From a candidate division TM6 bacterium UASB124 (GTDB lineage: Bacteria; Babelota; Babeliae; Babelales; RVW-14), in contig CAMDFF010000001.1 in the NCBI GenBank assembly GCA_945897315.1, forward strand, positions 106,366 to 170,365: a DNA stretch of 64,000 nt, given 5' to 3'. Made by a program: the position numbers and the translations under genes. The first letter of the stretch is position 1, and every line of letters begins with the position of its first letter. A model generated the notes under the pieces. It saw nothing but the letters and a program-made list of their open reading frames with translations. It had not been told where the DNA came from and made no database searches. Positions 12,374 to 56,115 of this stretch are shown here, piece by piece.

Positions 12374-12445
12374 CTGCTTTCTCCTATTGAAAAAGGGCGA
12401 ACTGTTGCCAGCTCGCCCTAAAAAAATTATGAACAGTGATATTAC

Positions 12446-30141: not shown

Positions 30142-31884
30142 TTATAAAAGCATCAAAAACCAGTAGTGAGCTTTGCTCAGAAGAGACTCTTTTTCTTGTG
30201 GTGAAAGGTTGTGAGATGCATATTTACCACCAGAGCAACTTCCTAAAAAGCTCATAAAATCATCAATTTTTTCATATTCAAAGCTACGTTGAATCAGGTA
30301 TGCTTCCACGTCATCCATGCTAAGAGATGCACTTGCTATGTTGTTTTTCTGGGAAATATAATTCATAAAAAATGTATATATGCCGTCTAAATCTTGTTTC
30401 TTTATAAGTGCCTTAAATGTCTTATTGTAATGAGCCTTTGTGCGGCTTTGCTTGGCGTAAATGTAAGCTAATACTGTTTTTAGCAATTCAATAATTTGTT
30501 TTGCTAAAAATGGCAGCGGGATCAGTAAGAGCAGCGCAAAAGCCCACCATGGCAATGCAGCCGGCGGGGTAGTGGGATTTTTGATTGGTATTGGTTTATC
30601 CGACTTTTCTGGCTCATGGTCTGGTGGTGTTGTTTTTGCTTCGGCTCTATCCCCGGTCTCTATCTGCGTGTTTGTTGGGTTGCCTGTGATACTTACGTTT
30701 AGCTGGGTGCTATGCAACGTTTTGATCTGGCGTGTGTTAGTATCAAAATATACGAAAGTCTGCGCAGGAATAGTAAAAGTGCCAGGATGAGTTGCCTGTA
30801 GCACAAACTCAAAATGCTTTTTACCAGTCATGAGTGGGTTGTTGGCATCCTCTATTGTTTCATTTTTCGATTCATAATACTTGATGCTCGGTGGCAGTTT
30901 GAGCTTAGGAATAGTTATATGGTCCAGGTCGCCTTTACCCTCTAAGTCTAGAGTAAAGGTGAGTGGTTCGTGTGTGTGTGCTTCGCCTGCTGAAAGCGTT
31001 GCCGTGTACTTGGTAAAATCGCCAACTCCATCGATGTGTTGATCTGTAGGTAGAGGCTTTACGGTGATGGCAACGGGGTTAGTTTTCAGCTGTACGCGCT
31101 CGGCTTGGTTGCCAAAAAAAGTGGCGAAAAAATCATCATCAAAAACACCTCCGTTGCTTCGACGCTGTCGCTGCACGGGAACCATTGCCTCAAGAGTGAT
31201 GGGGCCCAGAGTAAAAGATCCCTCTTTGTGGGGAGTGAGAAGATATTTTTTTTCAGAAATATTGTGGACTGTGCCATTTATTACCTCTTGTCGCTGTTGT
31301 AGCTGCTTAAGCTCTTTTATGGTGAAATCTGGTGATTCAAATTTGCCCATAGCCGCTTCAATAATAGGTTGGTTCGACATCAAGGTGAACGACAATTCAA
31401 TGACCTCGCCAAGGACTGCTTCGTTCTTGTTGGTAGTTAGCTTGGTAGACATCCCGTTCTGTTTGCCAGCGCTTTGTTGCTGAGCTGCTTGGGAGGGGGG
31501 GGTGATAGTCAGCGTTAGGATGTTTGATGCAACCTCGCGGCCTTGGTGGTGAACTTTGGCAGGGCCAATAGTAATAGTGCCAGGGGCTGCTGCTGCGACA
31601 GTGAAATGATATGATACATTAGATGAAAGCACCCCATTTATCATAGCCATATGGTTTGAGTTTTGTTGCCCAATCAGCTGCAACTGGTTGAGTCCATCAA
31701 GAACTGCTCTGCCTGTATTGCGGTCCCCATCACTTACTTCAACAACAAGATTAAATGCCTGTTTTGCCGGCTGACTGGTGCTATTATTTTGTGTTCGTAG
31801 TGTGATATTAAATGCCTGCGCGGTAGAGAACAATGCGCATACGATAAGTACATAAAGCATAAGAGAGATCCTCGCTACTACCAC
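30142..31884 (-). CDS. batD: BatD-like protein
   Basis: Signal peptide, ~450 aa of beta-rich repeats, a TM helix (WWAFALLLLIPLPFL) and a helical tail. Its position after batA-batB-batC matches BatD architecture. The start may be 31860. Confidence 0.6.
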   Translation of the reverse strand: MVVARISLMLYVLIVCALFSTAQAFNITLRTQNNSTSQPAKQAFNLVVEVSDGDRNTGRAVLDGLNQLQLIGQQNSNHMAMINGVLSSNVSYHFTVAAAAPGTITIGPAKVHHQGREVASNILTLTITPPSQAAQQQSAGKQNGMSTKLTTNKNEAVLGEVIELSFTLMSNQPIIEAAMGKFESPDFTIKELKQLQQRQEVINGTVHNISEKKYLLTPHKEGSFTLGPITLEAMVPVQRQRRSNGGVFDDDFFATFFGNQAERVQLKTNPVAITVKPLPTDQHIDGVGDFTKYTATLSAGEAHTHEPLTFTLDLEGKGDLDHITIPKLKLPPSIKYYESKNETIEDANNPLMTGKKHFEFVLQATHPGTFTIPAQTFVYFDTNTRQIKTLHSTQLNVSITGNPTNTQIETGDRAEAKTTPPDHEPEKSDKPIPIKNPTTPPAALPWWAFALLLLIPLPFLAKQIIELLKTVLAYIYAKQSRTKAHYNKTFKALIKKQDLDGIYTFFMNYISQKNNIASASLSMDDVEAYLIQRSFEYEKIDDFMSFLGSCSGGKYASHNLSPQEKESLLSKAHYWFLMLL

Positions 31885-32936
31885 GGCTTTTGCCCTTGCT
31901 GTTGCTGCTGCTGATTATTGCCGAGTTGTCGTAATAAAATATTTTTTTGTTTTTTTGATTCGTCTGCCTGTAAGTTTTCAAGAATAGCTTGCATGCGTCG
32001 ATCCTGCATAGTTTCTTGTTTTTTGTCGGCACTTTGCATACCCTCATTTAAGGCGTGTTGCTCAGTGGAATCATCTTGTTTTTCAGGTGATGTTTTATGA
32101 TCAAGGTCTTTTTGCTTCTGCTGCTCTTTGTCTTTGGTGGTATTGTCGTCAGGTTTGTCTTGTTTCCCTTGATCGGTTGGTGCGCTCGCATCTTCAGGGC
32201 TCTCTTTTCCGCCGTCTTGTTTTTTGTCTTTATCACCTTGCTGCTTGTCTTGGTCTACTTTCTCGTTGTCATCTGATGACGGATTATTGTCTTGCTGCTG
32301 CCCATTGTTTTTATTATTAGCGTCTGATTTCTGTTTGTCTTGCTTGCCATCTTGTTGGTTTTGATTGTGGTCTTGGCCATCCTGCTGTTGATCTTGCTTG
32401 TCTTGTTCGTCTTTTTTATCTTTATCTTTGTCTTTGTCTTTGTCTTTGTCTTTGTCTTTGTCTTTGTCTTTGTCCTGCTCTTGCTGCTGTTTCTTGCGAC
32501 GCAATTTTTCCAATATATCTTCAGCGCGAGCTAGATTTGTTTTTGTTTTTTCATCTGATGCGTCTTTTTTATATTCCACCACAGCGCTTTCTAGTGCTTT
32601 AATAGCTTTTTCAAGAGTAGGATCAGGAATTTTTTTGGAAGCATCGTCCCAATTTTCTGGTAGCAGGTGCACGCCATATTGCTCAAAGCTTTTACCAGCA
32701 TTAAACTGTGCTTGTTTTGCAAGTTTCTGATTGTTTTCGGCATGCGTGAGCGCACGTTGAAAATTGTGTGCTGCGCTTTCATATGAACTTGTTTTGTACT
32801 GAGCAACCCCCAAATTATAATTAATGAGAGCATCTTCAGGGTTTGCTGCTTGCTGGGCAAGCAAATTCTGTACGTCGTAGCCATATAAACTACCGGATCC
32901 GGTACATAATATAATGAGCAAAAATACGTAACTCAT
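31878..32936 (-). CDS. batC: TPR protein BatC-like with long K/D/Q low-complexity region
   Basis: N-terminal anchor and TPR (ALINYNLGVAQYKTSSYESAAHNFQRAL). The ATG at 32936 overlaps the batB stop (ATGA). Confidence 0.6.
   Translation of the reverse strand: MSYVFLLIILCTGSGSLYGYDVQNLLAQQAANPEDALINYNLGVAQYKTSSYESAAHNFQRALTHAENNQKLAKQAQFNAGKSFEQYGVHLLPENWDDASKKIPDPTLEKAIKALESAVVEYKKDASDEKTKTNLARAEDILEKLRRKKQQQEQDKDKDKDKDKDKDKDKDKDKKDEQDKQDQQQDGQDHNQNQQDGKQDKQKSDANNKNNGQQQDNNPSSDDNEKVDQDKQQGDKDKKQDGGKESPEDASAPTDQGKQDKPDDNTTKDKEQQKQKDLDHKTSPEKQDDSTEQHALNEGMQSADKKQETMQDRRMQAILENLQADESKKQKNILLRQLGNNQQQQQQGQKPW
32418..32474. repeat. Hexanucleotide tandem repeat (ATCTTT)2(GTCTTT)7 inside batC
   Basis: Read directly from the sequence. 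It encodes the (KD)n run DKDKDKDKDKDKDKDKDKDKK on the minus strand. Confidence 0.9.
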
Positions 32937-33922
32937 AGTAGCCACTCCAGTGCTAGTAGTAACCACGCGGCACCTAAAAACCATGGGTACTGATCGTGGA
33001 ACAGCGATACTGTTTTATTCTCGTAGCGCTCTTTTTCGTGCGATTGCACAAAACGCACAATGCTTTGCACATCATCATCGCCATACGCCGCACGCTGATA
33101 CTCGCCATGTAACGAACTGGCAAGCTCTTGGAGTATCTGCTCATTAAGCTTTGAAAGGGCAATGGATCCCTGTTCGTCGGTTTCATGTCCTTGTGGCTTT
33201 CCGTAGACATCAAACTTTGGAATTGGTGCGCCTTCTGGTGTTCCAACACCTAGAGCAAAGAGTGATATCCCATCATCAGTGGCCTGTTTTTTGATGCGGT
33301 GAAGATTTGTAGAAAAATCTTCACCATCGGTAAGCAAAAGAACAAGCTTGTTCTTACGTTGGCCAGCTTGCTTGAAAGTCTCAAGCGCTTTTTGTAAAGC
33401 ATGATCTAGCGCTGTTGTTCCGGAAGAAATTACTTCAGGGTCAACATTTTCAAGAAACATTAAAAAGGCGTGCTTGTCAGCAGTCATGGGGCATTGCAAG
33501 AAAGCAGAGCCAGAAAACAAAATAAGCCCAACGCGCTCACAACTGAGTTGCTGTAGCAAGCTTCGTATTTTAAGTTTAGCGAAAGAAATACGGTTTGGTT
33601 TGAGATCTTGTGCTCGCATGCTGCCAGAGATATCAAGTAACACGAGTAAGTCTCGCCCCTCTTGCATAACGCTTTGTTCTTGCTTCCCCCATTGTGGTCG
33701 TAAAAAAGCAAGGAAAATTGACCCAATAGCACAGCACGTGAGCAGTGCTTTGGTAAAGCTGCGCTTGCTGCCCATGAGGTGCAGCATATTTTTATGTGTT
33801 TTTGCGAGCAATGCAAAAGCACCCATTGTTTTGTAGGTTCTAAAAATAATTAGTGCCACGGCCAGCATGAAAAGTGGAAGCCACACTGCATTTTCTATAT
33901 GCGCCCAGTGAATAAAGCTCAT
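32933..33922 (-). CDS. batB: VWA-domain membrane protein BatB-like
   Basis: Two N-terminal TM helices, a MIDAS motif LLDISGSM, and LLTDGED. Confidence 0.8.
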   Translation of the reverse strand: MSFIHWAHIENAVWLPLFMLAVALIIFRTYKTMGAFALLAKTHKNMLHLMGSKRSFTKALLTCCAIGSIFLAFLRPQWGKQEQSVMQEGRDLLVLLDISGSMRAQDLKPNRISFAKLKIRSLLQQLSCERVGLILFSGSAFLQCPMTADKHAFLMFLENVDPEVISSGTTALDHALQKALETFKQAGQRKNKLVLLLTDGEDFSTNLHRIKKQATDDGISLFALGVGTPEGAPIPKFDVYGKPQGHETDEQGSIALSKLNEQILQELASSLHGEYQRAAYGDDDVQSIVRFVQSHEKERYENKTVSLFHDQYPWFLGAAWLLLALEWLL

Positions 33923-37503: not shown

Positions 37504-39783
37504 ATGGGCATGCGAAGAAAAAAAACTATGAATGAATCTGGACCAAAATTATTAATTGTAGAGTCACCGGGTAAGATCAAAACGATCTCAAAATTCCTTG
37601 GCAAGGATTTTAAGATCATGTCTACCATCGGCCATATCAAAGATTTACCACAGCGCCGCGTGGGGATTGTTATTGATGAAAAAACGGGTGCTATCGATTT
37701 AAAGTATGACGTACTAAAAGATAAGGCGACCGTGATTGCTGATATTTGCAAGCAAGCGCGTGTTTCGAGTGAAGTGTTTCTAGCGGCTGACCCTGATCGT
37801 GAAGGGGAGATTATCGCCTGGCACATTGGTCAGGAGATAGAAAAAGTTTTTGGTGATCCTACACGTATTCACCGTATAGCGTTTAATGAAATTACTAAAA
37901 CAGCTATTCAAGAAGCAATTCAGCATCCTTCATCTGTAGATCTGAATAAAGTTGGCGCGCAGCAAGCGCGACGTGTTTTGGATCGCTGGGTGGGCTATGA
38001 AGTTTCACCAATTTTATGGCGTAAAATTAGTAAGGGTCTTTCTGCTGGTCGTGTACAGTCTGTGGCCTTGCTGTTGATCTGTGACCGCGAAGCAGAGATC
38101 GTAGCCTTTAAGGTTGAAGAATACTGGTCGATCCATGCTATTTTCTTAGCAACAGGCAAATCTGAAATGTTGTCTGAGCTGGTGAAGATTAGCGGTAAGA
38201 CGGCAGTAATTGATTCTGAAGAGCAGGCCAATAAAATCCTTGAAGAGATCAAGAAGCAATCGTTTGCCATTACTAAAATCACTGAAAAAAAGCGCTTAAA
38301 GAACCCATCGCCGCCGTTTATGACGAGTACATTGCAGCAAGACTCGTACAACAAGCTTGGCTTCTCTGTTGATAAAACCATGTCTGTTGCCCAGCGCTTG
38401 TATGAAGGTATTCAGCTGGCTGACAAAGGTGGTGCTGAGGCACTGATTACGTATATGCGTACTGACTCGTTGCGTATTGCAGATTCAGCATTAGCTACCG
38501 TTCGTGATTTTATTGGCAAAGAGTACGGTAAAGAATATTTGCCAAAATCTGCGTTTATGTACGGCAAGAAGGGCGCCCAGGATGCGCATGAAGCCATTCG
38601 TCCTATTGATGTGAATATCACGCCAGCGTACGTTGCAAAATATGCCTCAGCTGAAGACGCCAAACTTTATGGTTTGATTTGGAAGCGCTTTGTTGCGTGC
38701 CAAATGGAGCCTGCAGAATACCATCAACGCCAAGTGACCATTGATGGTGGCAAGTACCAGTTTAGAGCTACCGGCTCAACACTCGTCTTTGATGGATTCT
38801 TAAAAGTCTATGAAGTTGAAGATGAAGAAGATGAAAAGGCCGTCAAGATACCTAAAGACATCAAAGAAAATGACGCTTTGACGGCGAAGAAATTTGACCC
38901 TAAGCAGCATTTTACGCAGCCACCCCCACGGTACACTGAAGCATCGCTTGTTAAAGAGCTTGAAAAACGTGGGATAGGTCGACCAAGTACTTATAACGCA
39001 ATTATCTCGACCATTCAAAAAAGAGCGTATTGCTCGCGAGAAAACAAGCGCTTTGTTCCTACCGAGCTAGGTAAAAAAGTCAGTGACATGCTTTCGCAAA
39101 ACCTGCCAGACATTATCAATGTTACGTTCACTGCAAAGATGGAAGAGGATCTTGATAAAATTGCTCAGGGCGAAGCTGTTCGTGATAGCGTGCTGAACGA
39201 GTTTTATACGAAGTTTAAAAAAGATTTAGTCGCGTTTGGTGGCAATGTCACCGACAAAAAAGCGATTGAGACAGATCTATCATGTCCAACTTGCCAGAAC
39301 CCCTTGGTTATTCGGTTTAGCCGCAATGGTGAATTTGTTGGCTGTTCTAAGTTTCCTGAGTGTACGTTTACTTCAAATTTTTCTCGCAAAGAAAGTGGGG
39401 AGATTGTGCTAGAAGACAAAGAACAAGCTGATTTTGGGGCGTGTCCTCAATGCAGCAAGCCTATGGTCAAGCGTATGAGTAAATTTGGTCCGTTTATCTC
39501 CTGTTCTGGCTACCCGGAGTGCAAATATATTCATCAAGAAAAGCTCAAGATGCCATGCCCAACCTGTGGCGGCGAGCTGGTGAAGCGTCGCTGGAAAGGT
39601 GGTTCGTTTTGGGGGTGTGGCAAATACCCTGGGTGTAAGTTTGCTATCTTTGGCCAGGTCGAAGAGTCGCCGTGTCCACAGTGCAAGAGCCCGTATTTGC
39701 TCTCGCTTTTTGATAAGAAAAATGAGACAACCAAGCTCAGCTGCCCTAATAAAGAATGTGGATATTCGATAGCTAAAGAGTAG
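37504..39783 (+). CDS. topA: DNA topoisomerase I with C-terminal zinc-ribbon repeats
   Basis: Toprim LLIVESPGKIKT and DPDREGE, GRVQSVA, the active-site region TYMRTDS, and several C-terminal CxxC...CxxC modules. The start could be 37504, 37510 or 37528. Confidence 0.92.
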   Translation: MGMRRKKTMNESGPKLLIVESPGKIKTISKFLGKDFKIMSTIGHIKDLPQRRVGIVIDEKTGAIDLKYDVLKDKATVIADICKQARVSSEVFLAADPDREGEIIAWHIGQEIEKVFGDPTRIHRIAFNEITKTAIQEAIQHPSSVDLNKVGAQQARRVLDRWVGYEVSPILWRKISKGLSAGRVQSVALLLICDREAEIVAFKVEEYWSIHAIFLATGKSEMLSELVKISGKTAVIDSEEQANKILEEIKKQSFAITKITEKKRLKNPSPPFMTSTLQQDSYNKLGFSVDKTMSVAQRLYEGIQLADKGGAEALITYMRTDSLRIADSALATVRDFIGKEYGKEYLPKSAFMYGKKGAQDAHEAIRPIDVNITPAYVAKYASAEDAKLYGLIWKRFVACQMEPAEYHQRQVTIDGGKYQFRATGSTLVFDGFLKVYEVEDEEDEKAVKIPKDIKENDALTAKKFDPKQHFTQPPPRYTEASLVKELEKRGIGRPSTYNAIISTIQKRAYCSRENKRFVPTELGKKVSDMLSQNLPDIINVTFTAKMEEDLDKIAQGEAVRDSVLNEFYTKFKKDLVAFGGNVTDKKAIETDLSCPTCQNPLVIRFSRNGEFVGCSKFPECTFTSNFSRKESGEIVLEDKEQADFGACPQCSKPMVKRMSKFGPFISCSGYPECKYIHQEKLKMPCPTCGGELVKRRWKGGSFWGCGKYPGCKFAIFGQVEESPCPQCKSPYLLSLFDKKNETTKLSCPNKECGYSIAKE

Positions 39784-39805
39784 CTGTTTTCTTAGCAAAA
39801 ATATA

Positions 39806-39837
39806 AAGCCCAGAGATTTTAACACATCTCTGGGCTT
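39806..39837. terminator. Hairpin terminator between topA and the convergent ATPase gene
   Basis: AAGCCCAGAGAT-8 nt-ATCTCTGGGCTT. A T-rich tract follows on the minus strand. Confidence 0.6.
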
Positions 39838-39916
39838 CGCACAGTCCATAAAGCCCTACTTGTAGTGTGATTGACGGTGTTTGTGCGAAATTCAACATCA
39901 ATGTTAATATCTGCAC
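39828..39916. repeat. 89-bp direct repeat, copy 1 (49-bp conserved core at 39868-39916)
   Basis: The core TGATTGACGGTGTTTGTGCGAAATTCAACATCAATGTTAATATCTGCAC matches 41272-41320 with 2 mismatches. CTCTGGGCTT lies 40 nt upstream of the core in both copies. Confidence 0.9.
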
Positions 39917-39921
39917 AGAAT

Positions 39922-41091
39922 TTATAGCATAACTTTTTTTAGTTCATTCCATCCAACGATCGAGCATTGTTCTTGTTCAAGGCTAATGGTGCCTCCATAC
40001 ACGAGGAATGATGTATGTGGTGTGAGTCCAATATGCTCTTGTCCAAAACGAATACCGTTAAGCATGTCGGCTTTAAACGTGGTGCTAGATTTAATTTCTA
40101 TACCCCGAATGTTGCCCTCTAGCTCAAGAATGCAATCAATTTCGTTGTTGTTGCTATCGCGCCAAAAATACATCTGGGGGCGTTGTTTGCTGTGGCAAAA
40201 CTGTTTTGCAATGTCGCTGATGACATAGTTTTCAAAAAAAATACCCTTCATTGTTGGGTTCATAACCAATTGCTCTGCACTAACACCCAATAACCGTGCT
40301 GCCAAGGCTGTTTCATAAAAATAAAGCTTTGGTGATTTAGTAATCCGTTTGCTAAAATTTTTATAATAAGGGGCCAATAAAAAAATGCAGTAGCTTGCTT
40401 CCAGCAGAGAAAGCCAGTTTTTTACTGTTGGGAGGGAAATTTGCAAGTCTCGTGCTAGGTCACTATACGAAACAATCTGCCCAATGCGGAGTGCACAGGC
40501 TTTCATAAACTGTTTAAAAGCAAACAAGTCACCAACATGTTTTAGGCCACGGACATCCCGTTCAAGGTAGGAAAAAAGATAGTCATCATACCATTCATCA
40601 AAGGGTGTCTTTTGCCAATAAATGCGGGGGAAGCATCCTTGAATTAACACCGTTTCTGCCGATGCTGGCAACAGGTTGGCCAACGACATTTCTTGCTGAT
40701 CAAGGGGCAAAAGAGTAAAGAGTGCGACTCTGCCTGCAAGTGATTGGCTGATATGCTCGCTCATTAAATAATTTTGTGACCCGGTTAAGACAAACTCGCC
40801 CATGCGTCCTGATTCATCGACAATGCCTTGGAGGTACGATAATAACTGTGGCTCGCGTTGAAACTCGTCAAAAATAACTCCCTGTTTGCCAGTGACACTA
40901 TTTAAAAAACCGCGCAAGTCTGCTTGAGCTACGGCTTGAGTGTCCATATTTTCAAATGAGTAGTAGGCATAGTCAGGAAATGCCATCTTTGCCAGTGTTG
41001 TTTTTCCCGACTGTCGAGGCCCAAGAATCGCAACAATGGGGTTGTACGTTGCGGATTTTTTGATTTTTTCGGTTAAGAGGCGGTGGTACAT
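39922..41091 (-). CDS. AAA+ ATPase with DUF4143-type C-terminal domain
   Basis: Walker A GPRQSGKTT, Walker B VIFDEFQ, a central wHTH-like region (SYSDLARDLQISLPTVKNWLSLLE) and a C-terminal EIDCILE...IEIK (PD-(D/E)XK-like). RBS AAGGAG. Confidence 0.8.
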   Translation of the reverse strand: MYHRLLTEKIKKSATYNPIVAILGPRQSGKTTLAKMAFPDYAYYSFENMDTQAVAQADLRGFLNSVTGKQGVIFDEFQREPQLLSYLQGIVDESGRMGEFVLTGSQNYLMSEHISQSLAGRVALFTLLPLDQQEMSLANLLPASAETVLIQGCFPRIYWQKTPFDEWYDDYLFSYLERDVRGLKHVGDLFAFKQFMKACALRIGQIVSYSDLARDLQISLPTVKNWLSLLEASYCIFLLAPYYKNFSKRITKSPKLYFYETALAARLLGVSAEQLVMNPTMKGIFFENYVISDIAKQFCHSKQRPQMYFWRDSNNNEIDCILELEGNIRGIEIKSSTTFKADMLNGIRFGQEHIGLTPHTSFLVYGGTISLEQEQCSIVGWNELKKVML

Positions 41092-41105
41092 GCATTACTC
41101 CTTAT

Positions 41106-41153
41106 TATGAAACTTTCATATATTCTCTGTTCAAGTTTATGAAAATCATAAAC
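41106..41153. promoter_or_regulatory. Two operator-like palindromes upstream of the ATPase gene
   Basis: TATGAAACTTTCATA (41106-41120) and GTTTATGA-AAA-TCATAAAC (41135-41153). They share the half-site TATGA and lie 15-60 nt upstream of the start codon. Confidence 0.3.
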
Positions 41154-41231
41154 TCCGGTCTATTTTTTGTAAAAATACATACAAAACAGGAGTGTCTAGT
41201 TACATTTTTGAATTTTGCGAGCATGTGCCTC

Positions 41232-41320
41232 CTCTGGGCTTTATTCTGTTCCTAATATTTTGCTGGTCGTTTGATTGACGGTGTTTGTGCGAATTTCAAC
41301 GTCAATGTTAATATCTGCAC
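41232..41320. repeat. 89-bp direct repeat, copy 2 (core at 41272-41320)
   Basis: See copy 1. In this copy the core carries a perfect inverted repeat, ATTGACG-N20-CGTCAAT. Confidence 0.9.
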
Positions 41321-41503: not shown

Positions 41504-42034
41504 ATGAAAATAGTTATCGTATTATTGTTTTGCTCGGTTGCCTTAGGTGTTCTCCATGCCGCTGATAGCGATGGTAGCGGCAATGACTATTCAGAGGACG
41601 AAATAATAGCAAAAAAGCGCTTTGACGTGCTGTTTGATTTGCGGCCATGGTTATGGCGAGCAGCACACGAGGGAGACGTGCCAGGCCTTGTTGAACTTGT
41701 ACGCGATGGGGTGTCGGTTGATGCGGCAGACTGCCATGGCGTGACGGCGCTCATGCTTGCGGCACATAGTGGCCACTGTGATGCGGTGAAATTTTTACTG
41801 ACTGCGGGGGCCGATGTGAATGCTGCGATGGGCAATGGCATAACGGCGATCATGCTTGCCGCTCATCAGGGGCATCGGATGATTGTTGATGTATTGCTTG
41901 GCGCAAGGGCCGATCTTGGTGTCATGACAGCTGAGCACGAGACGGTGTTGACCATCGCGCTGCCAGGAGCTGACTGGTATTTAATCTGTACATTGCTTGA
42001 CGCAGAAGGCATGAGGGGGCCGGCAAAGCTGTAG
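41504..42034 (+). CDS. Ankyrin-repeat protein with signal peptide
   Basis: About 3-4 ANK units (GVTALMLAAHSGHCDAVKFLLTAGADVNA; GITAIMLAAHQGHRMIVDVLLGARAD). Confidence 0.8.
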   Translation: MKIVIVLLFCSVALGVLHAADSDGSGNDYSEDEIIAKKRFDVLFDLRPWLWRAAHEGDVPGLVELVRDGVSVDAADCHGVTALMLAAHSGHCDAVKFLLTAGADVNAAMGNGITAIMLAAHQGHRMIVDVLLGARADLGVMTAEHETVLTIALPGADWYLICTLLDAEGMRGPAKL

Positions 42035-42063
42035 TGGGGTGTGATGGAAGCTTTTAATCGTGC

Positions 42064-42120
42064 AAAATAACCCACTGCCTGGCAAGCAGCGAGGCTGCCA
42101 GATAGTGGTTCTGGGTCAGG
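42064..42120. repeat. Hairpin repeat element, copy A
   Basis: AAAATAACCCACTGCCTGGCAAGCAGCGAGGCTGCCAGATAGTGGTTCTGGG. Same family as copies B and D. Confidence 0.8.
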
Positions 42121-42202
42121 CAATGGAAGGTGGTATTTGACTAAGGCAGATGATAGACTGGGGCGCTAGAAAGTAAATTGAGCCTTGAAGCAAGGGAGAG
42201 CA

Positions 42203-43795
42203 ATGCAAAAAATATGTGTTACCGAAAAAGAGTTTAAAGCAATACGTGAGGCTGGTGGTGTTTACGTCGATAAAACGAAACATATCAGCGATCTTTTTAG
42301 TGATGATAAATATTTTTTTCTTACCCGCCCGCGTCGCTTTGGCAAATCACTGCTTTGTTCAACATTAGCGGAGTTATTTTCAGCTAACCGTGCATTATTC
42401 AATGGTCTGTGGATTGACAGCAGTGACTGGGTTTGGAAAAAGTACCCCGTGCTTCGGTTTGATATGAGTAAGATTGCATCCCCAACGGCGACCGCAGCAG
42501 ACGTACGGCAGGGGATTGTTAATCTTCTCTCTGATAATGCTCAGCATATCGGCGTAGCTGATCTCAAAGAAGGGACCCCCTATTTAATGTTTGAGCAGCT
42601 GATTAAAAAAACAAAAGAAGTGCATGGAGAAAACGTAGTTGTTCTTATCGACGAGTACGATAAGCCCTTGCTTGACGTTATTAATGATCAGTCTCGTTAT
42701 AGAGACATTCAGAAAGAGCTGTGCGCTTTTTATAGTCAGCTTAAGCCAGCAGAAGAAGATTTAAAATTTGTCTTGATAACGGGGGTTTTTAAATTTACCC
42801 AGGCATCGATATTTTCTGGTCTGAACAATTTAAATGATATTTCTTTCGATCCGCATGCAGCAGAGTTACTTGGATATACGGAGCAAGAAATTAGAGCGTT
42901 TTTTCCGGAACATTTAGCAGTATTAGCTGCTAAAAATAACATATCTGTTGATGCAATGATGTTGAAGCTGCAAAAACACTACAACGGCTATTTTTTTGGT
43001 GTAGATGTTGATACGGGTGAGCCTTTTGGTGGAGTTTATAATCCTTTTGCTTTAAATTATGTTTTTAAAGCACAGCAACAGTTGGATAAGTGGTTTGAAT
43101 CAGGTTCGCCAGCGGCATTAATTAAGAAGCTGACAGCAACCCAGTTTGAAGATCTTGATCCAGAAAATCTAACGGTACATTTTTCAACGCTTGTAAAATC
43201 ATGCAGCGCAGATGACATAACTGCTTTGAGTATGTTGTACTATACAGGTTATGTAACCCTAAAAAAATACCACAATAAAAGAGTAACTCTTGGTTTTCCT
43301 AACGCAGAAGTAGCATGCGCCTTTACGGAGGCATTGTTGCCATTGCTCTTGCACAAAAGCTCAAGCGCTGTTACCAAAATTATGGATAAAATTCATGATT
43401 TATTTGAAGAGGAGCGGCTCAGTGATTTAAAGCAGTTGCTGAATGATGCGCTTGCCCCCGTTGCCTACCCGGTCCTTGCCAAGCCGCAAAATGATTCACC
43501 ACAAGAGCATTTGTATCAGATCGCATTTTATTACCTGTTTATAGGTAGCAAAATGCCTACGACGCTAGAAGATATGACTAATCGTGGCCGCATTGATATT
43601 GTCGTACAGCTACCGTCAGTAATTTATGTTTTTGAACTGAAGATGGATGAGCCAGCGGCAGTCGCGATTCAACAGATCAAAGATAAAGATTATTCGGCAA
43701 AGTTTCGTCATATGGGTAAACAGGTATACGCCATTGGCATTTCGGTAAATTCAGAAAAACGATACGTCAAAGAGCTTGAATGGGAATTGCTATAA
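42203..43795 (+). CDS. AAA-ATPase-like domain protein with PD-(D/E)XK (PDDEXK_9-type) C-terminus
   Basis: N-terminus FKAIREAGGVYVDKTKHISDL...FFLTRPRRFGKSL and VVLIDEYDKPL. C-terminus RIDIVVQ...VFELKMD. The ATG at 42203 follows GGGAGAG; the ORF track starts at a TTG at 42185. Confidence 0.75.
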   Translation: MQKICVTEKEFKAIREAGGVYVDKTKHISDLFSDDKYFFLTRPRRFGKSLLCSTLAELFSANRALFNGLWIDSSDWVWKKYPVLRFDMSKIASPTATAADVRQGIVNLLSDNAQHIGVADLKEGTPYLMFEQLIKKTKEVHGENVVVLIDEYDKPLLDVINDQSRYRDIQKELCAFYSQLKPAEEDLKFVLITGVFKFTQASIFSGLNNLNDISFDPHAAELLGYTEQEIRAFFPEHLAVLAAKNNISVDAMMLKLQKHYNGYFFGVDVDTGEPFGGVYNPFALNYVFKAQQQLDKWFESGSPAALIKKLTATQFEDLDPENLTVHFSTLVKSCSADDITALSMLYYTGYVTLKKYHNKRVTLGFPNAEVACAFTEALLPLLLHKSSSAVTKIMDKIHDLFEEERLSDLKQLLNDALAPVAYPVLAKPQNDSPQEHLYQIAFYYLFIGSKMPTTLEDMTNRGRIDIVVQLPSVIYVFELKMDEPAAVAIQQIKDKDYSAKFRHMGKQVYAIGISVNSEKRYVKELEWELL

Positions 43796-43860
43796 AAACA
43801 ACCCGCTGCCTGGCAAGCGGTGAGGCTGCCAAGGCAGTGGGTTTTAGGTGATGCAAGGGA
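43795..43860. repeat. Hairpin repeat element, copy B (abuts the stop codon)
   Basis: AAAACAACCCGCTGCCTGGCAAGCGGTGAGGCTGCCAAGGCAGTGGGTTTTAGGTGATGCAAGGGA. The arms CCCGCTGCCTGGC and GCCAAGGCAGTGGG pair. Confidence 0.85.
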
Positions 43861-44090
43861 AGCTTTAGGCTTAGTAGGTTAACTGATCATCTTCTCGTGC
43901 TCTACGATTCATGTCTGCAATCGCGGTTTTTTCAGCTAGGTCAATCGTGGCGTACGAGTTAATATATTATTTTTCTTTATTGATCCGTTTTGCTAGCTCT
44001 TGCATAAGCACATAGTGGCTTTTGATAGCGGCAAAAACTTCTCTTGGTTTTGGCTACGGCAGGGATAAAAGACAGCGGGCAAATATAGGA

Positions 44091-44117: not shown

Positions 44118-45668
44118 CTACATGGTCCAAACGTGGATAGTTTTAGCCCCAACTAATTCATCAAACTGGGCAATTTTTTCTTCCCACGTTTTTTTATCTG
44201 ACTGGTCAAAAATAACCAAGTGGGCTTCGGTAGCGTTCATGACGTCCATGTATTCTGCCGTCTGCACAAGACCTTCTGGAAGAGTTTTTGTCCCGCGGTG
44301 AATTTTAAGCTCAATTAAAATGCGCTTCTTGCCAAAAACAAGAGTCAGGTCAACACGGCCACGGCCAAGGGCATACTCGCGCTGCAGCGTTCCGCCGCCG
44401 TTGATAATGCGTTGCAGGTAGGCAAACATAAGCAAATGTGGTCCAGACTCTTTGTACTGGAACTGCTCTGCCCACATTCCGCTGTTTTCACGATAAAAAG
44501 TTACCCAGTCGTTCATCATTTTATTCATGTTAAACGACCCATCGGGGTGCAGATAATCTAGCGGTCGCTGCGTCATTGTTTGTTGCTTGACGTATGTTAA
44601 TGCCCGAGGGAAAACTTCTTTATAAATTGGGTTAGCAATCGCGAGATCTTTTTGCGTCACGATTCCCAGGTCGCGAGCATATTGCAAATCGTCCATCGGT
44701 AGGTTGTCAGGCGGGGTGCTTCCTGCAATAAGAGCATCCACAATAGCTCGCACACGAGGTTCTTGCAGTTTATGCACCAGTTGGTCGATATGCGTATCGC
44801 GTCGCAGAATAAGCGCTTCTCGCGCTGCCTCCATCGCTTCAAGCGTGATGGGCTGGGAGCGGTCTTGCACTGCACGAAAACAGGCTTGATAGGCGAGTGC
44901 GTTCACCAGCCAGGGCTGGCCCTGCGTCTGGTCGAAGGCGTAATCGATGGCTTCGTCAGTAAAAAGTTGCCCCGTCGCAGCCGTGTGCTGGAGGTACAGT
45001 GCTTTAACTTCTGCGAGAGTAAAAGATTCTATGGTCAGGCTTTCAGCTTTAATATTAAAAGCGCTTCCACCCAAGATCATGTTATTTTCTTGCTTTGAAT
45101 AAATCATGTAATCACGCACATCCCGTACGCCGATGAGGCATAAAGATTGGGGGAAATGCTTGGGGCGGTTGGTGTAGCCTGTGCGAAGCTGGCGAAGGAC
45201 TGAGATGAGTGTGTCGCCAATTAAAGCGTCAATTTCGTCAATAAAAAGAACAATTGGCTTTGTGCTATTTTTTGACCAATTATTTAAAAATGAGACAAGA
45301 GTTGTGGCGGGACTGAGTCGCCAATTGTCATCGCTAAAAAAGCTCAGAGAGCAGTGATCAGCTCCCCAAGCATTACTAATTTCTTCTTTAAGCCGCATGA
45401 GTACCGTAGTAATGCCACGAACATAGTTTTGACGATCTGCCTGAGCTGCTTCAACATTCACATACAGGGCTTCATATTTGCCAGTCGCATTAAGCTTATT
45501 GACCAGCTCTAGCATCGCCGTTGTTTTGCCACTTGGTCGGGGGGCGTGCACAATAAAATATTTTTGCTGATCAATCAGCTGCATGAGCAATGTTTCGTTC
45601 ATGCGAAATGGTACAGAGTAATGATTTTCAGGCTGAATTGGCCCAGCGATACAAAACGTTTTTTCCAT
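44118..45668 (-). CDS. P-loop ATPase (AAA-like) with PD-(D/E)XK-like C-terminus
   Basis: Walker A APRPSGKTT, Walker B LFIDEIDAL, and C-terminal GRVDLTLVFGKKRILIELKI (D...ExK). Confidence 0.65.
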   Translation of the reverse strand: MEKTFCIAGPIQPENHYSVPFRMNETLLMQLIDQQKYFIVHAPRPSGKTTAMLELVNKLNATGKYEALYVNVEAAQADRQNYVRGITTVLMRLKEEISNAWGADHCSLSFFSDDNWRLSPATTLVSFLNNWSKNSTKPIVLFIDEIDALIGDTLISVLRQLRTGYTNRPKHFPQSLCLIGVRDVRDYMIYSKQENNMILGGSAFNIKAESLTIESFTLAEVKALYLQHTAATGQLFTDEAIDYAFDQTQGQPWLVNALAYQACFRAVQDRSQPITLEAMEAAREALILRRDTHIDQLVHKLQEPRVRAIVDALIAGSTPPDNLPMDDLQYARDLGIVTQKDLAIANPIYKEVFPRALTYVKQQTMTQRPLDYLHPDGSFNMNKMMNDWVTFYRENSGMWAEQFQYKESGPHLLMFAYLQRIINGGGTLQREYALGRGRVDLTLVFGKKRILIELKIHRGTKTLPEGLVQTAEYMDVMNATEAHLVIFDQSDKKTWEEKIAQFDELVGAKTIHVWTM

Positions 45669-45764: not shown

Positions 45765-45830
45765 AAAACAACCCACTGCCTGGCAAGCAATGAGGCCGCC
45801 AAGACAGTGGGTTTTAGGTGATGCAAGGGG
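45765..45830. repeat. Hairpin repeat element, copy D
   Basis: AAAACAACCCACTGCCTGGCAAGCAATGAGGCCGCCAAGACAGTGGGTTTTAGGTGATGCAAGGGG. Nearly identical to copy B, including the 3' extension. Confidence 0.85.
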
Positions 45831-45845
45831 AGAGTGGGGCGTTGA

Positions 45846-48752: not shown

Positions 48753-49865
48753 TTACTGTTTAATGCCTGGAACCCAGCTAAATGCCCAGTTGAGTGCTTT
48801 AGTTACATCTCGTGTAATTCCAAAACCTGTGCGGCACTTAGATTCCATTGTTTCAGCAACAACGTCAGCGCATGGCCCTGTGAAATCTTTTGCGGAGTAG
48901 AAAGCTTGTCCCACGGTGTTAACGAAAGCTTTCTTGAAGCCAGTAGGAGCTGAGCATTCACTCAAAAGCGTTCTCTTTGCGACGTCTGCACAATTTTCTA
49001 CCACTGCTTCTACCGCTGCGCTTGGCGCAATACTAGGCATAGGCATTGGACAGCTGCTCCGAGCAGCACTGGCGAATTTTGTGGTAAGTTCAGCAACGCT
49101 TGCTTCCAAACGGCTGAGTTTAGCAGGCATGGTGAGTACATCGCGTACCATCCCCGTAACTTGTCCAATAACCTGCATAATTTCACCTGAGTAAGCGTAC
49201 GTTATGTACGTTGCAGCACCGACAACAACAAGGCCAAACGTTGCCTTGAGTATGGTGGTACGACGTTGTGTTGCAGCGCGTGTCTTGAGTTCACGTATTT
49301 TCAGCCCTGCATATGCGTTATTGTAACGCATATCTTTGTCGATTTTTTCTCTGCGACCATTTCCTGATAGATAAGCAGGAATAGTTGTGCTTGTTGCAGC
49401 ACTAGTATCTGTCATAACGTGAGCAGTTGGCACAACAACCGGGCTAGTTTCAACAATTCTAACCTCTGCTTGGCCAGTGGCCAATACAAGATTAACGTGT
49501 GCTGCTACTACGGGAGCAACAGGCACAACATCAGCAGGACGAATATCGAGCTGTTCAAGTGCTTGCAGGTAGTCCCGCATAAAATTTCTGGCAGCGACAG
49601 ATGTCGTCTTATCTGTTTCAAGATCTCCACCTGCAAGCAAGCGATCAACAATAGCCATAACAGCTTTACGTGTGCTCGGATGTGTCTTGTCATTTCTTAA
49701 CTTTGTTTCTACTGCTGCACGGTCAAGTGCTCCGGCAACACGGCGAGCTGCTCGTGCATGAAGAGCATCGGCACCGGCTCGTACTGGTCCAGCTGCAGCG
49801 CTCAAGCCTACAAAAGCTTGTGAAGCAAGCAGTAGTCCTGTGAGTACTAATTGTAACGTTTTCAT
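48753..49865 (-). CDS. Hypothetical exported/TM protein (array member 4, paralogue of 50680-51594)
   Basis: Signal peptide, AAAGPVRAGADALHARAARRVAG, a Val/Pro/Ala linker, a TM helix (FGLVVVGAATYITYAY) and a Cys-containing tail ending NWAFSWVPG. Confidence 0.6.
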   Translation of the reverse strand: MKTLQLVLTGLLLASQAFVGLSAAAGPVRAGADALHARAARRVAGALDRAAVETKLRNDKTHPSTRKAVMAIVDRLLAGGDLETDKTTSVAARNFMRDYLQALEQLDIRPADVVPVAPVVAAHVNLVLATGQAEVRIVETSPVVVPTAHVMTDTSAATSTTIPAYLSGNGRREKIDKDMRYNNAYAGLKIRELKTRAATQRRTTILKATFGLVVVGAATYITYAYSGEIMQVIGQVTGMVRDVLTMPAKLSRLEASVAELTTKFASAARSSCPMPMPSIAPSAAVEAVVENCADVAKRTLLSECSAPTGFKKAFVNTVGQAFYSAKDFTGPCADVVAETMESKCRTGFGITRDVTKALNWAFSWVPGIKQ

Positions 49866-49907
49866 AATAACCTCCATTATTTATTTCTATAATTCTATTC
49901 AGTTTGT

Positions 49908-50627
49908 TTATTCATAGCCCGTGACAACAAGCGCCACTTTGGTCAGCACGCCTACTAGCGGGTAAGAAATAAGGGCTTTGATGGGTATAGCAATCAATAG
50001 TGCCGGTATTTCAGGATCTATTGTTGAACAGGCAAACGCTAATGCAATTACTGCTGGCGCTACGCGACGGAGTCTTGTTGCATCCTCAGGAACGCCGAGG
50101 TAATTTGTTGTTGCTGTACGTTTACAGCGCTCCCAGAGGCTGGTAGCCAATCTTTTACCTGTTGCACATGCTTTACTGGTTGTTTCTTTAATTTTAGCTT
50201 CAATTGCTTCATAGGGTACTTGTTTTGCTGCGCAGAAAGCGATGACGCCACTGCCTGCGCCATAGTAGGCACCAAGGGTTTCATTGGCAGCTGCAAATGC
50301 AGCTGTAGCAATTACTAGTGGTGCAATCTGGCGCGAGCGACACAGCGGTGCTGGCGCAGGTGCAGGTAGGGCAGGAGCAGGTGCTGGAACAGGTGCAGGT
50401 GCTAGTGCTGGCGCAGGTGCTGGTGCTGGCGCAGGTGCTGGTGCTGGAACAGGTGCAGGTGCTGGTGCTGGAACAGGTGCAGGTGCTCGCGCAGGTTGCG
50501 GGGCAGTCGAAGCATGAACATGTGCCAGAGTACGTCTAGCAGATCGTAGAATACCTGTAGCGGGCATGGCGCAAATGTTGCCAATAGTTACTAAACAGCT
50601 CAAGCTAATAATTAATAATTTCTTCAT
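49908..50627 (-). CDS. Hypothetical exported/TM protein with (P-A/V)n linker (array member 5)
   Basis: Signal peptide, ~60 aa of PAPAPV repeats, and several hydrophobic helices. Confidence 0.55.
   Translation of the reverse strand: MKKLLIISLSCLVTIGNICAMPATGILRSARRTLAHVHASTAPQPARAPAPVPAPAPAPVPAPAPAPAPAPAPALAPAPVPAPAPALPAPAPAPLCRSRQIAPLVIATAAFAAANETLGAYYGAGSGVIAFCAAKQVPYEAIEAKIKETTSKACATGKRLATSLWERCKRTATTNYLGVPEDATRLRRVAPAVIALAFACSTIDPEIPALLIAIPIKALISYPLVGVLTKVALVVTGYE
50347..50495. repeat. Imperfect tandem repeat built on GCAGGTGCTGGT units
   Basis: Repeated GGTGCTGGCGCAGGTGCTGGTGCTGGAACAGGTGCAGGT blocks. They encode the PA/PV linker on the minus strand. Confidence 0.85.
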
Positions 50628-50679: not shown

Positions 50680-51594
50680 TTAACTACGGATTACTTGGAA
50701 CAACCAAGACAAAACTCCGGGGCTTGCTTCTTCTGGTGTGCGTATCATGGTCTTTAGGGCGGCGGTAGCAGCTGCATTGTCTAGTAGAACGCTGGTCTGT
50801 TCAGCGCATAGCTTGCTGAAATTTGGTGTTGGGTCTGAGCAAAAACATTCATAACCATGTGAGCACAGTGCGTCTTGGGCAAACTTCGTCGCACGGTCTA
50901 GGTAGGGCGTGTAAAATTCAACGGCTTTGTCTACATACGGGGCACACAAAGCAGAGGCTTTTTCTAGATACGGGGTGCAAAACTCAGCTGCTTGGGCATA
51001 TCTCGGAGATGCTTTAACCATTTCCACTGCTGCTGGAATAACCTCAGGAAAGCTATAGGTGAGCACCAAGCCAATTCCCGCGATTGAGACCACAGAAATA
51101 GTGACATATTTATGGCGAGCAAAAAAGCTTCGTGGGGCTGGTTGTATAGCGATGATCTGTGCAGTCTTGAGTTGCTGTTGGAGAGAGATGATTTCGGCTT
51201 CAGCTTTCTTTAAAGCCTCAAGCATTGCCTCAGGCGTTGCATTGGTTGTCATTGTTGTTTGAATTAGCTCTAGAACTGCCCCTGTTTGTATCGCATGTTG
51301 AATAGTAGCAGTTTGTGTCGCCGTGGCTTGGATCACTGCAGGAGCTACAGTTGAAGGGGTAAGCGGTGCTGTAGGTACTGTCGCTGCAGGCATTATTGCC
51401 GTAGGCATGGTAGCTTTCGGTGATTTTGTAGATCTTCTACAGCAAAGCCCCGCGAGCCTTGCTTCTCTTTTTATATGAAGATTGGTTGCGCCGCTTCGTT
51501 CTGGCCCGGCTGAAGCATCAAGGCTAATAGCAGCCTGTGCTGCAATAAGAAGACTTATTGCTAATAATTTAAATACTGTCTGTGATGTGTTCAT
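50680..51594 (-). CDS. Hypothetical exported/TM protein (array member 6, paralogue of 48753-49865)
   Basis: Signal peptide, ASAGPERSGATNLHIKREARLAG, a Thr/Pro/Ala linker, a coiled-coil-like EAEIISLQQQLK, a TM helix (VTISVVSIAGIGLVLTY), three F.TPYL.KA-type repeats, and a Cys-rich tail ending SWLFQV. Confidence 0.6.
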   Translation of the reverse strand: MNTSQTVFKLLAISLLIAAQAAISLDASAGPERSGATNLHIKREARLAGLCCRRSTKSPKATMPTAIMPAATVPTAPLTPSTVAPAVIQATATQTATIQHAIQTGAVLELIQTTMTTNATPEAMLEALKKAEAEIISLQQQLKTAQIIAIQPAPRSFFARHKYVTISVVSIAGIGLVLTYSFPEVIPAAVEMVKASPRYAQAAEFCTPYLEKASALCAPYVDKAVEFYTPYLDRATKFAQDALCSHGYECFCSDPTPNFSKLCAEQTSVLLDNAAATAALKTMIRTPEEASPGVLSWLFQVIRS

Positions 51595-52041
51595 AATAAC
51601 CTCCATAAACTCATCGTGTTAAACTTTACATAAAACCATGTACTCACCCTACAAGACATTAAAAACAATGTCAAATGGGTAATATATACTGGATATGCGG
51701 TGCAATATTTGTTCAATAGAAATAATTAATCAAAAAAAGCTAACCAACAATAAGCCTTGAACCTGGAGTAAACCTCCAGTGACTCTCGCAGATAGCTCAG
51801 GGCAATTTCAAAGGTTGATTTAGCCTAGCGCGTTACAATCGCAATAAAAAACGCCACAAAGTGTTGTTTAATAGATAGCGAATGCGCATTAATTGGCAAA
51901 AACTATAGTTTTTTGTTTAAAAGAGCTGGTTTTTTTAAAAGCAGGGGGCTCTTGAGATTAAAAAAGGGAAATTGTGGCTGAAATGAAAGCGTGAATGACA
52001 AAGAGATTTTTTAAGATGAGGAGCTAAAAATGGCTGAACGC

Positions 52042-54558: not shown

Positions 54559-54610
54559 AAAAATTATATAAAGTAATGGGTGATATATCACCAAAACTAT
54601 AGCATAAATG

Positions 54611-54676
54611 TATTTATTCAGCTAACGAATCATACAACAAAAAAGGCTGTAAAGAAAACCATAGCCATGGAAAACG
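54611..54676. repeat. ~70-bp direct repeat, copy 1 (31-bp identical core at 54616-54646)
   Basis: The core ATTCAGCTAACGAATCATACAACAAAAAAGG is identical to 56051-56081. Flanking similarity continues (GTAAAGAAAACCA.. versus GTAAAAACCACCA..). Confidence 0.85.
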
Positions 54677-56044: not shown

Positions 56045-56115
56045 TATTTTATTCAGCTAACGAATCATACAACAAAAAAGGGCGGCAGTAAAAACCACCA
56101 CCCCAGAAATAGCGA
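56045..56115. repeat. ~70-bp direct repeat, copy 2 (core at 56051-56081)
   Basis: See copy 1. On the minus strand this copy contains a G:U-rich hairpin (GGTGGTGG...CTGCCGCC) followed by a T-run, plausibly the ankyrin-gene terminator. Confidence 0.85.

Follow-up and report, generated by a model that had tools for sequence, protein, structure and literature searches.

A candidate defence gene between direct repeats of local sequence beside topA in a Dependentiae bacterium, and its possible origin by one-sided insertion-duplication

Introduction

Campbell-type insertion-duplication is the principle behind suicide-vector integration and insertion-duplication mutagenesis. A second well-known group comprises the site-specific integrative elements and their derivatives at the 3' ends of genes, such as the cis-mobilisable elements (CIMEs) next to ICESt1 and ICESt3 at fda and the tRNA-tail arrays of tycheposon-type islands. 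Hotspots of horizontal gene transfer (HGT) that lack genes of mobile genetic elements (MGEs) and show elevated homologous recombination in the core genes beside them have been documented as well (PMC5635113), and core defence hotspots form part of the same picture (PMC10250203). Many hotspots of transfer and defence are of this MGE-free kind; the accepted explanation, double recombination at both flanks, leaves no trace and has therefore been supported only statistically so far. How might genes be gained where only one flank is conserved? This question is raised by a locus in 64,000 nucleotides (nt) of contig CAMDFF010000001.1 (the whole stretch is called the window here), from a bacterium of the Dependentiae (TM6; Babeliales), a placement that rests on topA homologues. 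Just past topA, an ATPase gene lies between two direct repeats. The repeat-flanked gene is a real insertion footprint, and comparable footprints with other cargo are found in relatives. Homology-dependent insertion through one flank is considered below as their possible origin. No paper linking Dependentiae, mobile elements and direct repeats was found in the literature.

The source contig is at least 200 kb long, and the searches for repeats and recombinases in it covered the 64 kb of the window. Loci outside the window are named L001 to L093, and the relatives' sequence that was compared with itself amounts to 1.07 Mb of related loci. The 2.7-kb structure described below is identical in an independent Logan assembly of run ERR3719148 (L001), and it is therefore no artefact of one assembly.

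The direct repeat next to topA

The conserved genes end with topA, the gene for DNA topoisomerase I (37504-39783, plus strand; Pfam Topoisom_bac, Toprim and Zn_ribbon_Top1), and a variable region begins after it. topA is followed by a hairpin (39805-39838) with a perfect 12-nt inverted repeat (39806-39817/39826-39837), within a region, 39786-39920, that folds with z = -4.0. The right arm of the hairpin belongs to the first of two copies of an 89-nt direct repeat. Copy 1 (39828-39916) and copy 2 (41232-41320), read on the plus strand, are 80% identical and lie 1404 nt apart from start to start; aligned locally, they agree to 91% over 58 nt, with z = 33.6 against shuffles.

The repeat is a mosaic. 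Both copies open with the same 10 nt (CTCTGGGCTT), which in copy 1 are the right hairpin arm; a 21-nt block of about 38% identity follows, close to random, and then the 58 nt at 91%. The proximal 40 bp, described in the original prediction as equal in length and about half identical, do hold up in this form and can be resolved into the 10 identical nt, the 21-nt block and a further 10 nt at 70% identity. The distal 49 nt (39868-39916) contain two mismatches between copies, and the 48-nt core within them (39869-39916 in copy 1) is 96% identical to copy 2 and includes uninterrupted matches of 22 and 19 nt. Between the end of copy 1 and the ATPase stop codon there are 5 nt. The repeat had thus been described correctly in its position and spacing, its opening at the hairpin arm, its nearly identical distal part and its end beside the ATPase gene. 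The 21-nt block of copy 1 (39838-39858) is unrelated both to copy 2 and to the sequence that follows the terminator in relatives; ACAGTCCATAAAGCCC inside it is similar to the opening of copy 2 in reverse complement (p = 0.008).

Is the core part of a dispersed repeat? Neither the full core nor either half has a third site in the window (shuffles matching, 0/100), the core is absent from 1.1 Mb of relatives' sequence, and plasmid and phage records gave no matches, so that the search for it elsewhere, which had been suggested with the original prediction, returned the same two copies. A third copy of the repeat was found in no sequence set searched (window, relatives, genomes, viral, plasmid and phage). 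Within the sets searched, which covered 64 kb of the source contig, a dispersed or viral origin was considered and rejected: 596 Gb of genomes, a collection of 185,579 species that lacks the species of the window, gave a single match (L002), a chance 21-mer with unrelated flanks in a metagenome-assembled genome of the Acidobacteriota, and the one match in viral contigs (L093) is a 19-mer whose flanks are also unrelated. The core has no Rfam match, no promoter-like site, no significant fold (z -1.2 to -1.5) and no inverted-repeat geometry of the kind associated with recombinases; the fold z of the 89-nt copies is -0.6 to -1.6. With no tRNA in the window and no Rfam match, a tRNA, tmRNA or other known RNA as integration target was rejected too. 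To the eye, the stretch just after topA (39784-39810) shows AT-rich resemblances to positions 41160 and 41414; these are not significant (p 0.24-0.64) and were discarded.

Evidence for an insertion

The order BatD-VWA-VWA-acyltransferase-topA is kept in five relatives (L003-L007), and the genes 3' of topA differ in each; the site has the conserved flank and fast-changing gene content of a hotspot sensu Oliveira et al. (2017). In L004, whose topA is 90% identical, topA is followed by a terminator hairpin, a spacer of about 350 nt, an ankyrin gene, another hairpin and an AAA-ATPase_like gene. The ATPase gene of the window, which carries a DUF4143 domain, is absent from the site in L004 and in L003 (topA 91% identical), and about 75 more metagenomic loci of topA gave no DUF4143 gene at a distance of 8 kb or less.

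The two copies differ in how they relate to the terminator. An intrinsic terminator needs a T-tract, and the tract is present in copy 2 (GGGCTTTATTCTGTT) and missing in copy 1 (GGGCTTCGCACAG). In a terminator scan, the hairpin after topA is now terminator-like on the minus strand, that is, for the ATPase gene, and its plus strand is without a T-tract. The first 24 nt of copy 2 are 83% complementary to the left arm of the terminator (p < 0.002). Copy 2 is therefore probably the native continuation of the site, i.e. terminator arm plus spacer. A site reconstructed from left arm, loop and copy 2 aligns better with relatives than the actual sequence does (alignment score 58 vs 46 for L004, 42 vs 32 for L008), and the terminator-arm part of the repeat occurs once in L004 and in L008, where it is continued by sequence like that of copy 2.

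These comparisons support the earlier suggestion of a single-gene insertion that duplicated sequence already present at the site: the gene is lacking at related topA loci, copy 2 carries on the terminator arm with its T-tract, a homologous gene sits in the same place in L008, and the architecture recurs elsewhere, as described below. The empty site that had been foreseen (topA, terminator, one repeat copy, ankyrin gene) was not recovered as such: L004 has topA, a terminator and an ankyrin gene and is free of the DUF4143 gene, and no site with a single copy of the core was found.

On the far side of the module lies a lineage-specific ankyrin-repeat gene (41504-42034, plus strand). It has no orthologue among 5.8 billion proteins, the next best match being 39% identical, and its GC content is 52.9% vs 42.8% for the window; it is probably itself recently acquired cargo. 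For want of an orthologue it could not lead to a closer empty site. The downstream genes of relatives were likewise discarded as a marker of the far edge of the islet, as they share only generic ankyrin-repeat similarity, and a similarity noted by eye between 43985-44012 of the window and 11990-12018 of L004 was unsupported by BLAST.

The cargo gene and its expression signals

The cargo is an intact minus-strand gene (39922-41091) for an ATPase with AAA_14 and DUF4143 domains (Pfam E values 1e-26 and 2e-46) and a PD-(D/E)XK-type C-terminus. Its product gives a full-length match, over residues 1-372, to the PADLOC model PDLC04790 for PDC-S01 (E 4.6e-95). DUF4143 is listed among the PD-(D/E)XK families (PMC3424549), and PDC-S01 is a very common candidate single-gene defence family that joins an ATPase to a PD-(D/E)XK domain, with a defence role not experimentally validated (PMC12988326). 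The gene is thus a candidate phage-defence gene.

Its expression signals, found by reading the sequence and by promoter scan, occupy 41098-41173 on the minus strand. As the original prediction had it, they include an AAGGAG ribosome-binding site (41098-41103) and upstream palindromes (41106-41120 and 41136-41152); to these can be added a promoter-like TTTACA-17-TATGAT at 41173-41145. A palindrome motif, TATGAAAnTTTCATA / TTTATGAnnnTCATAAA, is kept upstream of DUF4143/PDC-S01 genes in three lineages (the window, L008 112-162 and L009 45-85). It overlaps the promoter-like site and is probably an autoregulatory operator. A further observation concerns L011 and L012 (1-223): the two independent assemblies end 223 nt upstream of a DUF4143 homologue, P0125, beside a 31-nt near-tandem repeat, which suggests a repeat boundary there as well.

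A homologous gene at topA in a related lineage

The closest homologue of the ATPase (P0122, 72% identical) is found on a 1.9-kb contig, L008. At one end, the contig carries the 3' part of topA (98 aa, 91% identical to the topA of the window), so that here, too, the ATPase gene and topA converge. The copies of the repeat that bracket the gene are 97% identical over at least 67 nt and have a period of 1582. They consist of the last 21 codons of topA and its stop codon; the second one, upstream of the ATPase gene, is an orphan tail, which reads KNETPKLSCPNKECGYAVDKE and then a stop. The contig ends within the orphan copy, which makes the repeat length a lower bound.

Was the gene gained once or twice? 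Comparison of topA tails places L008 and L003 as sister lineages with the window outside them. Synonymous-site identity between the window and L008 is 133/267 (50%) for the ATPase and 47/85 (55%) for the topA tail; the difference is not significant (Fisher p = 0.39), and synonymous divergence was given up as an arbiter between one ancient gain and two gains. From these values, the presence of the gene at topA may be as old as the split of the two lineages. The repeats in the window and in L008 must be young, because they are 96-97% identical and differently placed in the two genomes. The history that fits best is one of repeated loss and regain within populations.

Recurrence in other relatives

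Further cases were found by comparing the 1.07 Mb with itself and by a search anchored on each topA tail. In L025 (topA 71%), the topA tail is present in an array of three copies that brackets a 314-aa gene and then a pair consisting of a PDDEXK_2 nuclease and a ParD-like protein. In L032 (topA 61%), a repeat of 244 nt, of which 229 nt are topA, brackets a 166-aa gene, with 5 nt between the repeat and the stop codon of that gene. In L031 a decayed tail repeat brackets a 240-aa gene. The fourth case lies at another site: in L080 the last 159 nt of an ABC-transporter gene are repeated around one 632-aa gene. The genes bracketed by topA-tail orphans in L025, L032 and L031 are on the minus strand. 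As to the second module of the L025 array (11825-13068), its nuclease is of the 'transposase-like', Rpn type and its partner an antitoxin.

In L008, L025, L032, L031 and L080 the 3' end of the target gene is duplicated and the gene left intact; in the window the repeat begins 45 nt past the stop codon. Relative to the topA stop codon, the repeats extend from -228 to +5 in L032, -143 to +61 in L025, -37 to +26 in L031, -67 to 0 or beyond in L008, and +45 to +133 in the window, where there is no overlap with the repeats of L032 or L031.

The orphan tails still translate, with intact reading frames. In three independent cases the differences between true and orphan tails fall mostly at third codon positions (13/17, 10/14 and 11/15; pooled 34/46; P = 2e-8 if 1/3 is expected, 8e-4 if 1/2). 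The bias and the intact frames argue that the differences came about in functional genes rather than through the decay of an old duplication, and such differences would be expected between alleles of related lineages. The two orphan copies of L025 have one allele in common, as against the true tail. The codon-position test was initially taken as proof of a donor allele and has been downgraded, since the pattern would be no different if the functional gene had later undergone allelic replacement.

Repeats in L030, L014, L040 and L059 were rejected as footprints and left out of the argument from recurrence; they are shared 5' ends of tandem paralogues. In L030 (10297-14122), three tandem open reading frames (ORFs) 3' of topA have 5' regions of about 200 nt that are 97-98% identical, which looks like recent tandem gene duplication or strong gene conversion. 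At a topA locus from outside the Dependentiae, L092, an internally palindromic 120-nt element is present twice (2218-2337 and 5672-5793), 3.45 kb apart, around three genes.

Other bracketed modules in the window

Three more modules in the 64 kb are bracketed by local repeats unrelated to that at topA: two ATPase-nuclease genes and an AbiE pair. The two ATPase-nuclease genes are associated with an imperfect hairpin element of about 70 nt in three copies on the plus strand (fold z to -3.2). Copy 1 (D5, 42061-42133) lies upstream of an AAA-ATPase_like plus PDDEXK_9 gene (42185-43795, plus strand, from Pfam), the second orphan ATPase of the region. Copy 2 (D6a, 43795-43862) abuts its stop codon, the period of D5 and D6a being 1731. 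Between D6a and copy 3 (D6b, 45765-45832), which are 91% identical with a period of 1970, is a minus-strand gene for an AAA_35-like ATPase with an LmuA-like nuclease tail (44118-45668; Pfam, PADLOC). A diverged counterpart of the hairpin element is present upstream of the AAA-ATPase_like gene in L004, at about 12160-12215.

The third module is a complete AbiEii plus AbiEi pair (54680-55965, minus strand; Pfam; PADLOC E 1.7e-56 for AbiEi and 4.1e-75 for AbiEii), foreign in composition at 35-36% GC and situated between an ankyrin gene and the start of an ABC-transporter gene. It is bracketed by a perfect 34-nt repeat with a period of 1435; copy 1 (54613-54646, plus strand) lies between the AbiEii stop codon and the ABC-transporter start, and copy 2 is at 56048-56081 (plus strand).

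A few other features of the window may be recorded. The ABC-transporter gene (52860-54594, minus strand) consists of two overlapping ORFs, with the N-terminal ABC_membrane part separate, as a result of a frameshift, a pseudogene state or a sequencing error; the 83% relative has an intact 563-aa version two genes downstream of topA. In-frame tandem repeats occur in two places, as an 18-nt GCAGGTGCTGGTGCTGGN unit (Gly/Ala-rich; 50353-50508, in ORF 49908-50627) and as TTGTCT units (32398-32475, in ORF 31878-32984). The 33-nt stretches 49845-49877 and 51574-51606 are 82% similar and contain the ribosome-binding site and start of two neighbouring minus-strand ORFs that have no Pfam match and are probably tandem paralogues.

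Mechanism and alternatives

How did the repeats arise? A Pfam scan of the 57 larger ORFs across the 64 kb gave no match to an integrase, transposase or resolvase (Phage_integrase, Resolvase, rve, DDE). There were no recombinase matches in the cargo of L025, L032, L031 and L080 either, and no recombinase family recurs among 113 ORFs downstream of topA. The module ends have no terminal inverted repeats and no conserved signal (9 weak AT-rich matches in 360 tests vs about 3.6 expected by chance). The sequence and extent of the repeats are specific to the event: the 10 repeat pairs, at five kinds of site, have differing boundaries and no common junction motif. Their perfect runs are 19-54 nt long (22 plus 19 nt in the window, 25-54 nt in the other cases), which is enough for homology-dependent exchange, and marginal in the window.

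The original prediction was right that transposase, integrase and terminal inverted repeats are lacking and that the module is neither an insertion sequence nor framed by a short target-site duplication; its sole gene is the ATPase, and the duplications, of 34-244 nt, vary in length. The proposal of insertion at a long att-like site, taken as a dedicated site-specific system, is not established. Since boundaries and sequences vary and there is no recombinase nearby, homology-dependent recombination fits better, and the unknown cassette mechanism offered as the other possibility need not be invoked.

Campbell-type single-crossover integration of circular DNA is the best explanation that can be given at present, and we would put its chance of being correct at about even. 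The PDC-S01 gene, with its own promoter and operator, would be cargo that entered the post-topA spacer by a single reciprocal crossover. Its partner would be a circular DNA carrying the gene and a copy of the sequence just past the topA terminator, and the donor would most likely be a related strain in which the gene was already beside topA. A crossover within the common segment would leave the module with a copy of that segment at either end. Recombination between the copies may later excise the module, so that the gene could be lost and regained within populations. As homology is needed on one flank only, the route would work at a synteny breakpoint where topA alone is conserved. It would also account for the duplicated piece being the end of a conserved gene and for differing repeat boundaries around homologous cargo at one locus. 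Parts of this scheme that we infer are the circular intermediate, the involvement of host RecA-type recombination rather than of a recombinase acting in trans, and the identity of the donor.

Several points weigh against it. A circular form, a donor sequence or an excision junction has not been observed, and neither the relatives' sequence nor the search anchored on the ankyrin gene yielded an empty site with a single copy of the 48-nt core, which leaves the ancestry of the core unproven. The perfect runs of the window core are marginal for RecA-type recombination. The third-position pattern could also follow self-duplication and allelic replacement of the functional gene, as the shared orphan allele of L025 may illustrate. 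The origin of the first circle by illegitimate end-joining is assumed, and a recombinase encoded outside the 64 kb may act in trans.

The last point leads to another reading of the same repeats, as direct repeats from the 3' end of a conserved gene are the classic mark of site-specific integrative elements. Could the modules be CIMEs or satellite-type elements mobilised by a distant tyrosine or serine recombinase, with an att site near the topA 3' end and the repeats as attL and attR? The serial tail array of L025 resembles tRNA integration hotspots, four of the topA-anchored repeats overlap in about the last 37 nt of topA and its stop codon, and all first cargo genes have one orientation, convergent with topA. 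Such an origin is unlikely, however. The ORF and cargo scans gave no candidate enzyme, and the repeat of the window (+45 to +133) misses those of L032 and L031 entirely. The three other modules, with their unrelated repeats, would require several recombinase specificities; the module ends show no common signal, and the core has neither inverted-repeat geometry nor a significant fold. An origin as true target duplications, by staggered breaks 34-240 nt apart or by a replicative template switch at the terminator hairpin followed by fill-in, would fit the left edge of copy 1, which falls exactly at a hairpin arm, the inverted segment like the left arm inside copy 1, and the closeness of one repeat copy to the stop codon of the cargo (5 nt at topA in the window, 0 nt in the second module of the window and 5 nt in L032). 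PD-(D/E)XK nucleases that might promote such breaks are encoded by several cargo genes (DUF4143, PDDEXK_9, the LmuA-like tail and PDDEXK_2 in L025), but AbiE and several others encode no nuclease, and we know of no enzyme that makes variable duplications of 34-240 nt in bacteria. Homologous ATPases at one locus in two lineages, with different boundaries, would demand a target specificity that has no visible signal, and the copies are mosaic (the unrelated 21-nt block; synonymous-only patches in relatives), unlike a fresh self-duplication unless an extra event is added. We regard target duplication as distinctly improbable.

Two explanations remain. One supposes a single ancient insertion beside topA before the window and L008 parted, with repeats held similar by gene conversion and trimmed unequally from lineage to lineage, and with loss of the gene in L003. 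It has little probability in our estimate: sustained gene conversion between repeats of 60-90 nt would be required without ever deleting the module, and the first origin of the repeats is left unexplained. The equal synonymous identity of ATPase and topA tail is compatible with vertical co-inheritance, and L003, sister of L008, does lack the gene; against this, the repeat positions in L008 and in the window do not overlap, no remnant of a topA tail lies beside copy 2, and the presence of like footprints around other cargo in distant lineages speaks for recurrent events. The other explanation takes the core as a functional element used twice, such as a regulator site or a small RNA, or as a chance match, so that there would be no footprint at all. 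This is scarcely credible. Chance is excluded by the alignment score (z = 33.6) and by shuffles (0/100 matching), and an element of this kind finds no correlate in Rfam, in folding or in promoter-like sites. Its conservation (96%, far above that of the adjacent 21-nt block) and the position of copy 2, in the promoter region from which the ATPase and ankyrin genes diverge, would suit an operator. Copy 1, however, is situated at the 3' ends of convergent genes and would offer an operator nothing to act on, and the corresponding repeats of L008, L025, L032 and L080, being made of coding sequence, are plainly duplication footprints.

Significance

If Campbell-type integration is correct for these loci, circular fragments with one conserved flank integrate by single crossover and leave behind housekeeping tails that can still be translated, and such orphan tails could serve as datable scars of horizontal transfer. 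The duplicated flank, often an in-frame orphan tail, would be a physical scar indicating that only one conserved flank was used. Should this be general, the scars would provide a simple sequence signature by which gene gains in uncultured, host-dependent bacteria can be found and ordered, and would explain the integrase-free movement of candidate defence genes such as PDC-S01 and AbiE. A wider proposal, which we offer tentatively and think doubtful as it stands, is that one-sided insertion-duplication is a principal, recombinase-independent route in Dependentiae by which small modules (defence, toxin-antitoxin, effector-like) are gained and lost at synteny breakpoints. In a bolder version, it is conceivable that PD-(D/E)XK ATPase-nuclease cargo genes, PDC-S01 and its relatives, may actively promote their own insertion.

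The repeats predict an excisable module. Excision through them would create a deletion junction that consists of the terminator left arm and loop, one hybrid repeat and then GTTATTGTGC, and a circle junction that reads GCATGTGCCTC, the repeat and then AGAATTTATAGC.

Comparison with known systems

The likeness of the locus to PDC-S01 concerns the cargo, which matches the family model over its full length with AAA_14 and DUF4143, and does not extend to the insertion mechanism. Integron cassettes and clusters of attC sites lacking an integron-integrase (CALINs) come to mind, as single genes, with or without a promoter, are each followed by a repeat of 60-140 nt and the three-copy hairpin repeat (42061/43795/45765) is superficially attC-like. 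In contrast to cassettes, however, the 89-nt repeat has no attC-like fold and no R''/R' pairs, no IntI is encoded, and the repeats are local chromosomal sequence, which in relatives includes coding sequence. On direct reading for the boxes R'' (RYYYAAC) and R' (GTTRRRY), a minus-strand GTTGAAT in the repeat has no complementary R'' partner. With no significant fold and no integrase, an attC or integron interpretation was rejected.

Elements flanked by att sites offer a closer parallel. There, too, repeats of the 3' end keep the target gene intact, tails form serial arrays as in L025, and small modules without an integrase occur. The present loci differ in that no integrase is found here or at the hotspot of relatives, there is no common crossover position, and the other loci of the window use unrelated repeats.

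Campbell insertion-duplication yields the same arrangement of repeat, insert and repeat; in that process the repeat is a homologous segment that is single in the empty site. Its length and sequence are set by the event and not by an enzyme, no recombinase is encoded by the element, and the process is reversible via the repeats. Unlike the laboratory procedure, integration here would be a natural and recurrent way for an uncultured intracellular phylum to gain genes; the segments in common are short, at 34-244 nt, and a circular donor and RecA dependence are supposed.

The MGE-free HGT hotspots (PMC5635113) share with the topA locus a variable, defence-rich islet beside a housekeeping gene, the lack of an integrase, and signs of allelic exchange in the flanking core gene. 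The model proposed for them invokes a double crossover through both flanks and leaves no repeats, whereas here one flank, topA, is conserved and has been duplicated, with orphan tails as scars. The loci described would thus extend the MGE-free hotspot model from a scarless double crossover to a one-sided crossover that leaves orphan tails.

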